The translations under genes were made by a program, and so were the position numbers. A stretch of DNA of 64,000 bases from Eledone cirrhosa (lineage: Eukaryota), in contig OZ024740.1 of the NCBI GenBank assembly GCA_964016885.1, forward strand, positions 100,254,001 through 100,318,000, read 5' to 3'. Below are positions 2,126 through 61,478 of the stretch, piece after piece (within the stretch, counting starts at the first letter, position 1; each line of letters begins with the position of its first letter). Below the pieces are notes generated by a model that was given only the letters and a program-made list of their open reading frames with translations, had not been told where the DNA came from and did not search any database.

Positions 2126-2203
2126 AATTGTCTTTTCTGATGAACGAATGCGGACGTATCTTGTATTTGTCTTATTTGGGAAACCTCTGGTAATGAGGTA
2201 ATT
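2126..2203 (+). ncRNA. Type I hammerhead ribozyme motif (family F)
   Basis: AATTGTCTTTT-CTGATGA-A-stem II-G-GAAAC-CTCTG-GTA-ATGAGGTAATT; followed by a short tail and (TA)n. Confidence 0.65.
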
Positions 2204-2329
2204 ATACAGTATTGTTTATTATACATTAAATATATATATATATATATACATACACACACACACACACATATATATATATTCCATTGTATCTCTTGAATCT
2301 TTGATGTGTTTTTACAGAGAAACTGTAGC

Positions 2330-2800
2330 ATAATATTTAATCAATAGGTCATACTGCCTGCACAGATTCTCTTAATTCTCTGGTACCATCCAATTCTATT
2401 GTTCATCATATTTGGCAAGTCAGAGGGATTGCAGTTTATGTCATCACTAATCTGCTTGATATACAGCTTGTCTTGTCATTCTCTGCTAGCTCCACCTCAG
2501 TAAGGCCTCGGGTGCCATCAACATCTTATCTCTCGTATAAAAATATAGATTTCTAGACAACATGAAAAGGAACCTCTTTCAAGCAACTGTTACTTCTGTT
2601 CTATTGTATGACTGCTTGGCATGGGCCCTTACCTCAAAACTCAAAAGGAGATTAGATGCAACCTACAGTTACATGCTAAGAGTAGCTTTGAATGTCACTT
2701 GAAGAGATCATCTGACCAATGAGTGACTGTATGTGAACTTTTGACCTGTATCAGACATCATCAAAGTGTATAGAATCATATTTGTAGTGTTTTGCTGAGA
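2330..2800. pseudogene. Decayed RTE/RTEX LINE fragment with inversion
   Basis: Plus frame about 2545-2730 reads MKRNLFQATVTSVLLYDCLAWALTSKLKRRLDATYSYMLRVALN; left part reads as a minus-strand C-terminus. Confidence 0.6.
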
Positions 2801-5800
2801 GCTAAAGTCAAAATTGTATTGCATTCCAAAATGTTAATTCGGGTTTTGATTACAAATTTAGGTTGGCAGTGGCGTTATTTTTCGTCTGAATTCTTTTAAT
2901 TAATAATTTTCATATGAATAAAATAGTTGGTTCTTAACATGCTACACAATATTAGTGTATGATTCACCTTTCTAACCCCTCTTAATAATATTATGTGGCT
3001 GTCTAGTTCCAGGTTTACCTTGAGTAAACAGAGCTATGATAAAAAAACTTAGCTGTGGTCATTTTATCTTTTTAGAAATTAGTGTCTCTTGTTTATATAA
3101 AGTGATAGGTCGTTATTTGAAGTTTAGTCCTTATCTCTGGAAGGCTAAGTGATTATACAGAAACTTTAATTGTCATATGTGTTTTAGCTGTTCCTCCCCT
3201 GCAATCGATATAGGGCTGCTAATTTTGATGTTTTGTTGTAATCAGCCCTGATTGGGCAGATCTAAGATCAAAGGTGTTCCATCTATGATGATTCCATCTT
3301 CTTGTGTATCTTAGGTAATGACCAAAATAATATCATAAAAAGTACAAGTCGCATAAATGGGGTTCCTCTGAAGAGTATTTGGAGTAATGCTGCTCAAGAG
3401 GGTGTATAGCTTGGTTATCTGGTGGTCAAGGAAACACTATAAGTAGAACAGCTACTTCTCCAAATCAAGAGATCATAATTCTGATACTAGAGACATGTTA
3501 GAATGTTTAAGGAAAGAATCACTGAGCAGATTTTACAATAAAGACAGATAGACAAACACAGAGAGAGAGATAGAGGCAAACTGTCAAACCAACATAGGGA
3601 GAGGGAGAGAAAGGACTGAACCAAACTGAGGGAGATAGCACAAGAGACAAACAGCCAAGATAAAAGTAAGAAAATCGAACCATTACTGACACTTTATTTA
3701 TTGACTCCTGGAGAAAGAAATTAGCTGTTTCTTGGCAGGATTTGAACACAGATCAAAGACAGTTAGAATGAATACTGCAAGGTATTCTATCGAAACTCTA
3801 ATGAGAGTTGCCAATTTGATATTACTTGTAAAATTCATAAGGTATTCAATAGCTGTCAGCAAGTGTTCAGTTTAATGTTGATTTAGCAGAATAATTAGAG
3901 CATTAGACATTTATTCCAGTTCTCTGTTCTCTGAGTTGAAATCTTGTCATGGTCTATTTCATCTTTCATCCTCCTTTTGGGGTCAATAAGAAAATACCAG
4001 TCTAGTGCTTTTGCAGCCCTCTCTTCTTCCAGCTGTCACATCCTACATGCTCTACTAGATGAAGTTAGAGAGGGTTAAGAGGGAATATATGTCTGCTTTG
4101 TCATCTAAAATGCTTAGCCAAAGCTTGGCATCAACTGCCAAGTCGTATGGAACTACATATGATAGATATAGTTAGATTAGTATAACTAAGAAACAACGAT
4201 ATCCATTAAGTTTATTTCAACATAATTTACTAGCTGAAGAGGAGTTTTCACTGGTAATCTCATGACACATTTAGTTAACCATTTGTTATTCACCCACCTG
4301 TGACCATTTATAGTTCTGGCATACAAAAACTCTCCTTTCTAATGTAAATTAAAACTTCATCATAATTCTATATAATTTGATTCAAACACTAACGCTTTTT
4401 TTATATAAAAATATTGATTTGCCTTCATCCTTCTTGGATCAAGAACCTGGGTTGATATAATCGGCTTTCCCCCACACCAAAAATTGCTGGCCTTGAGCCT
4501 AAATTAGAAAACATTGTTATTATTGTTGATGTTGTTGTTGTTATTATGATGTTGATGATGATGATGATAATTATTATTAATTACTTTTGCTTCCTTTATA
4601 TAATTGACTTAGGTTGGTTTACATACATTTGCAAACGAATGCAAATGGCAGAACCAATAATTGATGTCACATTCGATTGTTGTAATTTCTGAAAACCAGT
4701 CGCATAGTTGCATTAAAAGATAAAGAGGTGTTAATATATGCATAAAAGAAATTTTAAAACTGGCTTATATTAGATGCTTTTATAGCAAAGGAAATTTTAG
4801 TTTGCTATAGCCAGCTTCAGTCAGGAAAACTAAGAGAACATGTAGAAATTCATAATCCTCATTAGCTGCACTAATACACTGCCATGGTTTCAATTTTACA
4901 ATATATTTATAGCTGTGCAATCATAATTTAATATTGAGCGATCACATGTGTCATAAATGAGTGTAACAGGGATATAGATATAATTAGATCAGTCGTTAAT
5001 GATATTTCTGTAATCCATTCTGCATTTTTCTTGAAACTTTTAGAAATCATTTCCTTCTGTCAATTAATGCCAAATATAAATATAGTTAGAATAAAAATCA
5101 AACTTTCCAGTTGTTATCTTCCTCTTTCTTCTACAACAACTACAATGGTTTGCGATGGGGCCCACCCACAGCCCTGGCGAACAGAATGGAGAAGGCGATA
5201 GCCAATGAAGGAGTTTCTGTAGAGATGATAGGTCTGCTTGAAATAAAAGCTAAATCTTCCTTAAATGGCATCGCTCACAAACTCTCAAACACAAACATTG
5301 GTACACATGCACACACGCCTACATACAAGCATTTTAAAAAGACAATCCTTCAGGTAAAGCAGGGTTTTCTTTGAGGGTTCAATTACAGGTTTCATACTCA
5401 TCATGGGATCCTTTTTAAGACCAGATGCCCTTGCTGGTGTCAACCCTTTCAGTTACCTCATCTGGATACACAGAAATGTTCCCTCGTATCTAAACAGTAG
5501 AAAGATCTCATTAAATAATGTATTCCTAGATACATTATTTCTAAAACTAAAAGGTGAAGAAGACCACAGCTGGAACACTCATCGCAATGTAGTATAGATG
5601 TGAGGTTCTACCGCATTAATTTAAATGATTTTACAATTTGACTTTGTACTGGATTATCCAGTATCACTATGACTAGCCTGAGCTCAAGTTCAAATGAAGT
5701 GTAAACCTTTTGCATGGGGATTTCTTTTGCGTCCCTTTAACTTTCGCTCTTTTTGATTATTCTTTTACTTTCATGGATCTAGTCCCCTTTTTGGGGGCTC

Positions 5801-6279
5801 TGCATTTGGGTTCTTGTTCAGTAACAGAGTTTCTTTTTCAACACAGAACTCAGCAAAAGTGTCATATCTCGTAACCACCATGTTGTTTGCTCACTGGTCG
5901 GGCTTAGTAAATTAACATAGTAAATTTTCAGCATGGTTATCTCAATTATTCAAGGAATGTGACCAAAACACTTTTAACAGTAGAGTATTCAATTCCACCT
6001 GTATCTATATATACATTCTTGCACATAAAGCAAACTACATAGATGACTTAAAAGTAAAATATGCATTTGAAATTAAATCTACTTTAATTCTTAAATCATC
6101 AGTTATGCTAATTATCTGATAAAGAAAACATTTCCAATTATCAAGTTTGCTTTGTTATAACTAAGTACCATGAGTTGATGCAGGGTACAGTTATAAGCAG
6201 CATGTGCAGTACACTTACCTCCCTTCTTCTGATTACTGAATGCTGAAGCTGGTTCATTACTGCACCAACTTTTGCAATT

Positions 6280-6720
6280 CTTGCCTTTAATTTAGCCTCC
6301 ATCACTCATGAACATGGCCCCAAAACACTTGAACTTCTCTACCTGCTTCTGTGGGATTCCATTCACATGTAGAGTGCATTGCATGGGTTTTCTTGAGAGC
6401 ATAAGTGTATCAGCACTAATTTTTATTTCAACCATGCAGCATACGGCAATAAACCTATCAAGTGCAAGTCAAAGATCATCTTCTGTTGAGTAAAGTAACA
6501 CCATATTGACTGCAAATTCCAGCAGACTTATTTTACACCCAGCAGTTATGATACCACTTCCAAGCTGGCTGCACATGTCCATCCTGTTCATGTAAATAAT
6601 GAACAGGGGGAGATGACAGTATGCACCCTTGGCAGAGTCAACACCCACATTGAATGGTTTCAATGTAGCACCATTTATCCGAACACAAATACTCAGGTCT
6701 CAGGTGGCAGATAATTATAC
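6280..6720 (-). pseudogene. Decayed RTE LINE reverse transcriptase fragment
   Basis: PLFIIYMNRMD...KISLLEFA...MLSRKPMQCTLHVNGIPQKQVEKFK; related to 34030-34750. Confidence 0.65.
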
Positions 6721-60351: not shown

Positions 60352-60505
60352 AATGGTGGTGGTGGTGGATGGTGGCGGTGGTAGTAGTGGTGGTGGTGAA
60401 AGTGGTAGATAGTGTCAGTGATGGTGGTGAAGGCGGTGGGGGTGGTTGTTGTGGTGGTGAAGGTGGTGGATGGTGTCAGTGATGGTGGTAATGGCAGTGT
60501 TGGTG
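60352..60505. repeat. Degenerate (GGT)n repeat
   Basis: Direct reading. Confidence 0.85.
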
Positions 60506-60860
60506 GATGTATATATATATGTATATATATATGTATATATATATGTATATATATATATGTATAAATATATATATATGTATTTATATGTAAATATATATAT
60601 AAATATATATATATATATGCATATATATATATATATATATATATATATATATATATATATATATATATAAAAGAAGTTAATATCCCCACAGGTACTAAGT
60701 ACCCCTGGAAATATATAGGGTGTCTATGATACAAGGGTTGTTCCATGGTATTAATTTGACATTCCAGAACTATGAAATTGAGATAAGCAGAACAGGCGAG
60801 ATTCAAACAATTTTTTTAAATAAATAAAAAAATATAATTTAAATATTTACCTATTCCAAT

Positions 60861-60944
60861 TGCTTTTACCGAACGGTTTCACTTCACAAAAGATTGGAGA
60901 TCCCTACGGACTTCCAATGGAAAAGTTTAGATCATCAGAAAGCA
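60861..60944 (-). ncRNA. Type I hammerhead (family C)
   Basis: Minus strand TGCTTT-CTGATGA-T...T-GAA-ACCGTTCGGT-A-AAAGCA. Confidence 0.82.
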
Positions 60945-61394
60945 TTTTCCTTTCCTAGGACAAAAAGTCCCAGGAACGGCAAAATATATCGCCATCTGCC
61001 AGCTACCACAGGATTGAATGGGGCCGAAAATTGGACCTATGCGTGAACCACCCGTAGTAGAAACAGAAGTAAACATAGACGTATTGTCTACCTCGCCACT
61101 AAAAATAGTAGCTAATAAAACAACGGATTTGTTCTCTACATAACGGAGAATATTAAAAGAAGTTAATGTCCCCACAGCTACTAAGTACCCCTGGAAATAT
61201 ATAGGGTGTCTATGATACAATGGTTGTTCTATGGTATTAATTTGACATACCAGAACTATAAAATTGAGATAAGCGGAGCAAGCAAAATTCAAACAATTTT
61301 TTTAAATAAATTAAAAAATATAATTTAAATATTTACCTATTCCATTTGCTTTTACCGAACGGTTTCACTTCACAAAAGATTGGAGGAAAGAAAA

Positions 61395-61478
61395 TGTTTT
61401 CTGATGATCTAAACTTTTCCATTGGAAGTCCCTAGGGATCTCCAATCTTTTGTGAAGTGAAACCGTTCGGTAAAAGCA
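61395..61478 (+). ncRNA. Type I hammerhead (family C, inverted copy)
   Basis: TGTTTT-CTGATGA-T-CT..ATTGGAAGTCCCTAGGGATCTCCAAT..AG-T-GAA-ACCGTTCGGT-A-AAAGCA. Confidence 0.82.

Follow-up and report, generated by a model that had tools for sequence, protein, structure and literature searches.

The type I hammerhead motifs that recur in a stretch of Eledone cirrhosa DNA of 64,000 nucleotides (the window) probably reflect a clade-wide relaxation of the first stem II pair, in which the hammerheads of Hydra-clade Penelope-like elements (PLEs) favour U·U or G-C at positions 10.1/11.1 and in which selection keeps a cleaving fold without tuning a brake on cleavage. Using a structure descriptor consisting of CUGANGA, stem II, GAAA, stem III, UH and stem I, we detected nine motifs in the window, as compared to a mean of 0.09 and a maximum of 1 in 100 block shuffles. 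Relaxed scans and homology led to 19 accepted type I hammerhead copies of 12 families, which are listed below together with one doubtful motif and the state of 10.1/11.1. Family letters were assigned anew, and those of a preliminary description of this DNA can be mapped to them only in part.

2126..2203, plus strand: family F hammerhead with stem I, motif at +2137; A2144·G2179
21101..21131, plus strand: diverged family A copy, core CTGCCGA; U·U
27248..27281, minus strand: family A' hammerhead; A·A at 27274/27262
29072..29103, minus strand: family H hammerhead-like motif, weak stems, one copy seen; G·U
30566..30601, plus strand: degenerate copy in the published register; extra G, then G·U (G10.1-C11.1 in other copies of its family)
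31425..31474, minus strand: family E hammerhead; U·U at 31467/31437
32059..32089, plus strand: family A hammerhead, palindromic stem III, GUA site; U·U at 32066/32079
32476..32523, minus strand: family D hammerhead; A-U at 32516/32490
33219..33278, minus strand: family B hammerhead, inverted partner of +33625; U·U
33625..33684, plus strand: family B hammerhead, inverted partner of -33278; U·U
34818..34849, minus strand: family I hammerhead, stem II of two pairs, stem I 5' strand lost at the inversion centre; U·U
34882..34913, plus strand: family I inverted partner; U·U
39601..39631, minus strand: family A copy, stem I pair nearest the core broken; U·U
40376..40406, plus strand: family A inverted partner, degraded stem I; U·U
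51563..51627, minus strand: doubtful motif without stem I, not accepted; A·A
54165..54214, plus strand: family E hammerhead; U·U
57052..57090, plus strand: family G hammerhead, stem II of 7 and stem I of 5 pairs, core CCGAAGA (U4C); A·G at 57059/57078
60867..60938, minus strand: family C hammerhead; U·U
61401..61472, plus strand: family C hammerhead; U·U
61722..61757, plus strand, outside 2126..61478: degenerate copy, core CTGACAA, published register; extra U, then G10.1-C11.1

The core CUGANGA...GAAA...UH is unbroken in 16 of the 19 accepted copies, the exceptions being the U4C change of family G and the degenerate cores of +21101 and +61722, and it is surrounded by stems I, II and III with stem I open, which corresponds to the type I layout. 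Some copies have a damaged stem I and family I a truncated one, whose intact form was deduced from a relative in L141. At 10.1/11.1, 15 of the 19 copies are mismatched and thus lack the purine-pyrimidine pair of the consensus, a feature with published natural exceptions, whose absence does not exclude the class. Five families carry U·U (A, B, C, E and I), two A·G (F and G) and one A·A (A'), and the first position is A-U in D and G·U in H. The mismatch pattern given in the preliminary description is therefore real, with one U·U family more than the four listed there. It had not separated out the two copies in the published register. The A·A that it ascribed to a diverged B copy probably refers to -51627, in which stem I does not form and which matched no family. 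The motifs -49861, -63933 and +48543 as well as those within LINE ORFs (-58573, -57660 and -9659) were rejected or considered doubtful. A third, truncated inverted copy of family C is located at 61353-61375, and +30566 matches a cluster of 11 copies (cluster 4) at 79%. An Rfam scan of the window gave 112 matches at E<=1, none of them to a hammerhead family; they were miRNA models that sit on microsatellites and inverted repeats. For the monomers, minimum-energy prediction mostly gives a fold other than the hammerhead, and these predictions were not counted as support. In contigs of four sequencing runs, no other letter was present at 32066 or 32079 among the matches listed, and pieces from two organisms (B and C) were unchanged across both positions.

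To what extent the first-pair states characterize whole families is indicated by genome-wide counts, which were obtained by pattern matching and for which reversed-pattern controls gave 0 matches. Among the first 100 genome matches per family, U·U was found in 97 for family A (13,490 matches in total) and in 99 for family E (5,735), A·G in 98 for family F (1,884) and A·A in 96 for family A' (1,811). From this we conclude that the mismatches in these four families are family states and not the decay of single copies, as the preliminary description had argued. Family B comprises 32 U·U, 6 A-U and 3 A·C among 41 matches, and the 3' half of family C has U11.1 in 41 and C in 6 of 47. The genome, whose motif copies number in the order of 100,000, is nevertheless not restricted to mismatches: the largest superfamily, that of family D with 41,360 matches, is paired in 81 of its first 100, and among symmetric-register hits in 700 kb the first position is paired in 45 of 98. 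Subfamilies change between A·G, C·A, U-A and C·C, with A·G, C·A and U-A subfamilies in family G and A-U as well as A·C in family D, and sister subfamilies with G-C, A-U or U-A show no sign of a penalty. After clustering, the second stem II pair is standard in all 32 symmetric-register clusters and the first position in 11, being mismatched in the other 21, in a tally made with a descriptor that itself prefers a paired stem II. U·U and G-C together account for 19 of the 32 clusters as compared to a shuffle mean of 9.5, the 19 being reached in 0 of 20,000 shuffles of clusters that are not independent. The pairs below the first position covary, with 84% paired as compared to 60.5% when shuffled and 24-51% in slid registers.

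Regarding the host elements, ORFs with Hydra-clade motifs, for which we used the criteria in section 11 of PMC8557442, lie upstream of three genome families, i.e. F, D and a family with a U4A core. The family F motif is located 1.2 kb behind such an ORF (L188), and the family D motif follows Hydra-clade ORF ends in L152, L073 and L047. By eye, the ORFs combine a reverse transcriptase (RT) with a C-terminal GIY-YIG endonuclease (713 residues in L114 and L113, 743 in L143) and display a CxCX5C linker, CxxC and CxH around a conserved E and N, and no CCHH (L114, L143 and L188). The RWK-like motif reads RWR in L113, L105 and L143, and a DKT motif is present in L114, L105, L143 and L190. The RTs of hammerhead families are about 40-50% identical and resemble Hydra-1_Obim and Hydra-2_Amil by eye; the RT tree was confined to relatives from the genome and metagenomes, and Pfam gave no match for three RT fragments. 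No PLE ORF lies in the 64-kb window, no ORF was found in L189, which was examined for a link to family E, and a search for an autonomous partner of family A found none. The clade of families A, A', B, C, E, G, H and I, which have no ORF link, is thus assigned from their architecture. The sequence (TA)4 occurs at most 260 bases downstream of 14 out of 18 window copies, compared to 28.6% of random places, in a count that leaves out D with its TA-rich stem III, and the inverted copy pairs in the window fit truncated, inverted Hydra-clade insertions. The family A hammerhead +32059 is part of a non-coding unit of about 430 bases; this family also forms tandem arrays with one hammerhead per unit at a spacing of 420-433 bases, which fits a non-LTR retrozyme.

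The published Hydra-clade families show a similar picture. In File S2 of PMC8557442, 24 of 25 have a symmetric stem II according to our own count, with 14 U·U, 7 G-C, 2 G·U and 1 U·C at the first position, and U·U occurs in Hydra, sea cucumber and sea louse. The authors label these hammerheads canonical, and the sections covered do not discuss the first position. Metagenome relatives were symmetric in 15 of 15 hits (6 U·U, 7 G-C, 1 A-U and 1 G·U). Like the hammerheads described here, those of Craig et al. 2021 are type I with a symmetric stem II, a short palindromic stem III and U·U as the commonest state, and their elements share the 3' hammerhead, the (TA)n targets and the RT and endonuclease motifs; A·G, A·A, C·A, A·C and the U4 changes are absent from the PMC8557442 table. 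Most metazoan PLE hammerheads carry an extra base between A9 and G10.1 (PMC4209133), and the G10.1-C11.1 baseline of the preliminary description was thus incomplete. Cervera and de la Pena 2014 (PMC4209133) reported the same PLE pseudo-LTR context, palindromic stem III, U3-A8 covariants and inverted pairs spaced 100-700 bases, whereas their consensus of an extra base plus G10.1-C11.1 is followed by only two degenerate window copies; the rows of Hydra magnipapillata and Drosophila willistoni in their Fig. S3 are U·U in our reading of the extracted text. The axolotl retrozyme HHR_Amex2 (PMC7229834) is also type I and has U·U where helix II begins, is present in about 60,000 copies in tandem units of about 350 bases, similar to the family A arrays of about 430 bases, and self-cleaves, better as a dimer, but it comes from a vertebrate, makes loop 1-loop 2 contacts and has no purine mismatches. 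Perreault et al. 2011 (PMC3088659) list the same U10.1-U11.1 mismatch and the same U4C change as natural variants, which are rare there but fixed in families of thousands of copies in E. cirrhosa. The U·U state is thus not new by itself, and the lineage specificity proposed in the preliminary description falls for U·U, which occurs in cnidarians, an echinoderm, a crustacean, a metagenome and axolotl, but possibly holds for A·G, A·A, C·A and A·C.

These comparisons of sequence show Hydra-clade hammerheads to be without the lone extra base of most other metazoan PLE hammerheads and to have a symmetric stem II, in which the second pair is always formed and the first position depends on the family, with U·U and G-C being favoured. 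The motifs would represent type I hammerheads of PLE 3' ends (pseudo-LTRs) and of short non-coding derivatives, with at least three of the genome families probably belonging to the Hydra clade. In the host these elements radiated, and the states A·G, A·A, C·A, A·C, A-U and U-A came to be fixed per family; each state would have been amplified through the copying of a few master elements. We infer that the first position need only stack under the sheared A9·G12 pair; if stacking is the sole need, this role could be filled by U·U as a wobble and equally by a standard or a third sheared-type pair. According to RNA isostericity, A·G, A·A and C·A would have a sheared-type geometry. Selection would then tune no brake, but maintain a fold capable of cleavage, probably at a slow rate and as a dimer or with the protein of the element. 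The sheared A9·G12 pair does adjoin 10.1/11.1 (PMC11300833). The literature searched contained no cleavage assay of any Hydra-clade hammerhead, the supplements of Perreault et al. no rate for the U·U variant, and the searched text and supplements of an eLife pairwise-mutagenesis study no values for the 10.1/11.1 pair.

Changes are also fixed in the core itself. A family with intact ORFs and 23,486 matches has U4A in 94 of its first 100, and family G with 6,144 matches has U4C in 95 of its first 100, which suggests that catalysis itself may be weakly constrained in E. cirrhosa; U4A is not among the natural variants in the parts of PMC3088659 covered. E. cirrhosa is as yet the only host in which A·G, A·A, C·A, A·C, U4C and U4A have been seen as fixed states. 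Its Hydra-clade radiation could be remodelling the core, by a sheared-type third pair (A·G, A·A or C·A) at the top of stem II and separately by U4A or U4C within the CUGA turn, leaving either active or crippled ribozymes. If active, they would constitute a core type that standard searches refuse and that is perhaps rescued by protein; if crippled, a very successful PLE would be spreading with them; in either case the genome would offer a ready series on what hammerheads do for PLEs. An alternative, which we regard as unlikely, would be that catalysis is largely dispensable in the host, with the fold kept for protein binding, for end definition or by hitchhiking, and with near-neutral changes drifting through master copies. 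The U4A and U4C families fit this view, as do the four first-pair states within family G (A·G in 66 of the first 100), a lizard PLE, for which in vitro insertion was as good with ribozyme-dead as with wild-type RNA and the main template was uncut RNA (PMC11167929), and the Naiad elements, which thrive without canonical hammerheads. However, families with RTs as divergent as given above retain the remaining core together with the UH site and all three stems, U·U and G-C are over-represented, U4C retains enough activity in a viroid, and U3-A8 covariants occur in 24 of 115 sampled hits, although some may be chance.

It is rather improbable that the mismatch is selected to slow cleavage and thereby to spare uncut or multimeric RNA as a template for reverse transcription, as the preliminary description had proposed. 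The mismatched clusters, the use of uncut RNA as a competent template in one PLE and the rank of G10.1-C11.1 as the best conserved hammerhead stem pair (PMC3088659) are in line with this proposal. However, paired forms are about equally common, the largest superfamily is mostly paired, and sister subfamilies switch state without an apparent penalty, which argues against selection for the mismatch as such. Moreover, the favoured U·U is the least damaging mismatch (reported as best tolerated in PMC3088659, citing Ruffner 1990), the axolotl U·U motif, the one animal U·U hammerhead for which our searches yielded an assay, was cleaved to 22% versus 6% for a paired counterpart after 1 h as a monomer, with stem III also differing (PMC7229834), and the short palindromic stem III already provides a dimer-dependent brake.

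Very improbable is a numbering artefact, in which the first base would be 9a and the last an extra base 11a, so that the next, standard pair would be the true 10.1-11.1. The two descriptions are identical as secondary structures, the published metazoan PLE consensus does have an extra base after A9, and the second pair is always standard in the clusters. Of the 32 clusters, however, 18 have a pyrimidine-purine second pair and no more than 4 have G-C there, and the first and last stem II bases co-occur non-randomly and form G-C in many sister families, as expected for a real pair. The published register is impossible in B, C, I and A', costs 2.9-4.7 kcal/mol more in A, E, F and G, and is preferred only in +30566, +61722 and the mutated copy +21101. 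An alternative register that restores pairing in all families, a possibility raised in the preliminary description, was checked, and no single shift does so across the window families. Finally, chance motifs or decay of single copies, to which the degraded window copies (+21101, -39631, +40376, +30566 and +61722) and a few sampled singletons may owe their appearance, are refuted as a general explanation by the near-uniform states of A, E, F and A', by match numbers that range from tens to tens of thousands per family, with empty reversed-pattern controls, and, besides the window excess, by 91 motifs in 600 kb of the genome compared to 0-4 per shuffle.

The role of hammerheads in PLEs is an open question (PMC8557442, PMC11167929). 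Since the families share their fold except for one stem position and U4, cleavage rate could be compared with family success, and beyond the known U·U the genome adds whole families with A·G, A·A or C·A as well as core changes. Most of these motifs escape Rfam and any descriptor that insists on CUGA or on pairing at 10.1-11.1, and hammerhead counts are therefore probably too low in animals with Hydra-clade elements.

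By relaxed scans and homology search, which supplemented a strict type I descriptor, we accepted 19 hammerhead copies in 12 families in the window. Their first stem II position (10.1/11.1), made up of the base that follows CUGANGA and the one that precedes GAAA, is listed here for the symmetric register, in which these two bases face each other (family letters are our own).

First stem II position in window copies.
U·U: 12 copies, families A, B, C, E and I
A·G: 2 copies, families F and G
A·A: 1 copy, family A'
A-U: the family D copy
G·U: the family H copy

The preliminary description had listed mismatched states in several families; the U·U, A·G and A·A families are real, while its diverged A·A copy, probably the motif at -51627, was rejected as being without stem I. 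None of the 19 motifs was recovered by the Rfam hammerhead models in the whole window (1-64000), even at E ≤ 1.

Genome-wide exact pattern searches were performed per family with both 10.1/11.1 positions left free, and the reversed controls gave 0 matches each. States were tallied by eye on the listed matches, inverted pairs included; in the large families these are the matches that come first along contig 1.

States at 10.1/11.1 in genome-wide matches.
Family A: 13,490 matches; first 100 listed: 97 U·U, 1 C-G, 2 C·A
Family E: 5,735 matches; first 100 listed: 99 U·U, 1 U·G
Family B: 41 matches; 32 U·U, 6 A-U, 3 A·C
Family F: 1,884 matches; first 100 listed: 98 A·G, 2 A·A
Family A': 1,811 matches; first 100 listed: 96 A·A, 2 A·G, 2 U-A
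Family G: 6,144 matches; first 100 listed: 66 A·G, 14 U-A, 14 C·A, 3 C·C, 2 A·A, 1 C·U
Family D superfamily: 41,360 matches; first 100 listed: 72 A-U, 13 A·C, 9 G·U, 4 U·U, 2 A·A
Family C: 47 matches, 11.1 alone tested; 41 U, 6 C

The mismatch at 10.1/11.1 is real and family-wide, and the proposal that it does not result from decay of individual copies is borne out by these tallies.

In a survey of 700 kb, in which a CAGA core was also allowed, 98 of 115 matches were in the symmetric register, with 45 paired (28 A-U, 12 G-C, 3 G·U, 2 U-A) and 53 unpaired (26 U·U, 14 A·C, 7 C·A, 4 A·G, 2 A·A), the A-U and A·C counts being raised by tandem arrays. Tandem arrays seen in our numbered stretches (L019-L021, L037:3650-4580 and L074:281-3381) consist of non-coding units of about 430 bases (family A) or 310 bases (an A-U sister family), which carry one hammerhead each and are retrozyme-like. 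Clustering of 230 hammerhead matches gave 45 clusters; after removal of 11 weak singletons, 2 were in the published register and 32 in the symmetric one, among which 4 duplicate another cluster and that of +48543 is probably due to chance. U·U is the commonest state (13 of the 32 symmetric clusters), followed by G-C (6), A-U (4), C·A, A·G and A·A (2 each) and A·C, U-A and U·C (1 each). U·U and G-C together make up 19 clusters, a value reached in 0 of 20,000 shuffles (mean 9.5), although kinship inflates this figure. This suggests that 10.1/11.1 is a genuine pair position that prefers two states, U·U and G-C.

The non-canonical first pair had been considered a possible lineage-specific variant, which for U·U is refuted by its presence in other hosts. 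In File S2 of PMC8557442, by our count 14 of 25 families of the Hydra clade of Penelope-like elements (PLEs) carry U·U (11 from Hydra, 2 from sea cucumber, 1 from sea louse), the remaining ones being 7 G-C, 2 G·U, 1 U·C and 1 with an extra-base register. Among 35 metagenome contigs with related reverse transcriptases (RTs), 14 carry hammerheads, 15 in total and without exception symmetric: 6 U·U, 7 G-C (from three distinct motifs), 1 A-U and 1 G·U. PMC7229834 also names a U·U in an axolotl family with about 60,000 copies, where it lies at the foot of helix II; the state is therefore neither new nor host-specific. The metazoan PLE consensus in PMC4209133 has an extra base and G10.1-C11.1, and its descriptor demanded pairing; 2 of 56 rows in the machine-extracted figure text read as U·U. 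For the most part, mismatch at this position is a trait already known from Hydra-clade hammerheads. None of the 25 families of File S2 and none of the 15 metagenome hammerheads has A·G, A·A, C·A or A·C, and we found no literature on them as first-pair states in a search that covered few subscription papers and not Lunse 2017. New here are these purine-containing mismatches and fixed changes of U4.

A9·G12 is a sheared pair adjoining 10.1/11.1 (PMC11300833). The first position would need stacking more than Watson-Crick pairing, and U·U and G-C could be exchanged via G·U or U·C, both of which were observed. The sheared stack may be prolonged by A·G, A·A, A·C and C·A, a geometry that we assume from RNA isostericity. 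We consider it probable that 10.1/11.1 is a relaxed yet functional pair.

That catalysis is largely dispensable in this host's elements is possible but rather unlikely. One PLE hammerhead is described as requiring its protein and as dispensable for insertion in vitro (PMC11167929). Position 4 of the core is C in 95 of the first 100 listed matches of family G (window 57052-57090), and U4C has been described as lowering activity while leaving enough for a viroid. Position 4 is A in 94 of the first 100 listed of 23,486 matches of an intact-ORF Hydra-clade family with frames of about 713 residues (U4A family), whose element end is a complete three-stem hammerhead with U·U (e.g. L124:4106-4150 and other loci). 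Five of the remaining 6 matches, which have U, lie at the centre of overlapping inverted copies. These copies overlap at the near-palindrome of the core, so that one arm reads canonical CUGA (G000:C1:4182314-4182358, contig 1 of this genome, and four similar places); the inversion point of family I (window 34818-34913) likewise lies at the core. The window holds no full U4A copy, only a 3' remnant (52252-52307). Genome-wide, family G shows four first-pair states over an unchanged 7-pair stem. Families with the U3-A8 covariant in their core occur in this genome and a metagenome relative (L043:3186, L053:7110, L055:9589, L051:5827, L159:2103).

Less likely again is that the mismatch was selected to attenuate cleavage, as had been proposed initially. 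The uniformity of copies within a family reflects the state of the master elements and not selection. Natural U10.1-U11.1 has been recorded and is cited as the most active mismatch in PMC3088659; the axolotl U·U monomer was 22% cleaved in 1 h versus 6% for its sister, with the dimer far better (PMC7229834), and palindromic stem III favours dimers according to the literature.

A numbering artefact is very improbable. The published register has one extra base after A9, so that the second base faces the last. Families B, C, I and A' cannot form it, and A, E, F and G lose 2.9-4.7 kcal/mol by it; the only copies that prefer it are the degenerate +30566 and +61722 (strand-signed window positions), which do not follow the symmetric register, and +21101, which is mutated. 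A register in which the first base faces the last but one can form in B, C and I, and is worse there except for +34882. No single shift thus mends all families. When 11 short-stem motifs were aligned, 84% of cells were paired in the stem II register versus 24-51% in slid registers; the first position pairs in 5 of the 11 rows and each of the three that follow in 10 or 11. The second stem II pair is standard in 32/32 symmetric clusters and pyrimidine-purine in 18/32, unlike a displaced G10.1-C11.1. Chance motifs can practically be dismissed, as the type I descriptor gave 9 motifs in the window, where 100 block shuffles averaged 0.09, and 60 evenly spaced 10-kb stretches gave 91 matches against 0-4 in 8 shuffles.

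Family A is a non-coding unit of about 430 bases that forms tandem arrays in the manner of a retrozyme. From RT fragments adjoining its loci we arrived at a large family of elements whose 713-residue frames are intact. [quoted passage not shown] Linkage to ORFs was found for three families: F (motif 1.2 kb downstream of a Hydra-clade ORF in L188), D (behind ORF ends in L152, L073 and L047) and U4A. In a midpoint-rooted tree of 22 RT segments without named reference RTs, 5 short ones being excluded, 7 segments of this genome lie on one side of a branch (100/99) and 15 metagenome relatives opposite. By this split, the 7 RTs are a putative host radiation in which U·U, A·G, A-U and A·C all occur.

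The window (G000:C1:100254001-100318000) has abundant microsatellites and LINE fragments and belongs to an animal genome of 3.0 billion bases, which by repeat content and by the likeness of its RTs to Hydra-1_Obim may be that of a cephalopod. Window copies are cut-off element ends, frequently inverted and close to (TA)n, which lies within 260 bases of 14/18 copies versus 28.6% of random places. Between 31200 and 33900, families E, A, D and B have their ends crowded into 2.7 kb around runs of (TA)n, as would fit elements that entered the same targets repeatedly. About 10 kb before the window F copy lies another family F motif, of the same subfamily and opposite orientation (G000:C1:100246305-100246352, minus strand), possibly the inverted partner of +2137. 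In D, E and several relatives (32476-32523, 31425-31474, 54165-54214) stem II has a C·C mismatch as its fourth pair, which others have as C·U or C·A, while adjacent pairs covary; the fourth pair may be a tertiary contact site.

Other features of the window.
21369-24491 (+): uninterrupted 1040-residue LINE ORF with endonuclease and RT, RTE-like by eye
9319-11500, 27663-28993, 35457-36455, 41309-43656, 57172-59905: its degraded relatives
32-994 (+): 320-residue open frame, by eye an LTR-retrotransposon integrase fragment in appearance
45474-45779, 24556-24626, 49964-50082, 53772-53842: tandem repeat family of about 48 bases near LINE ends
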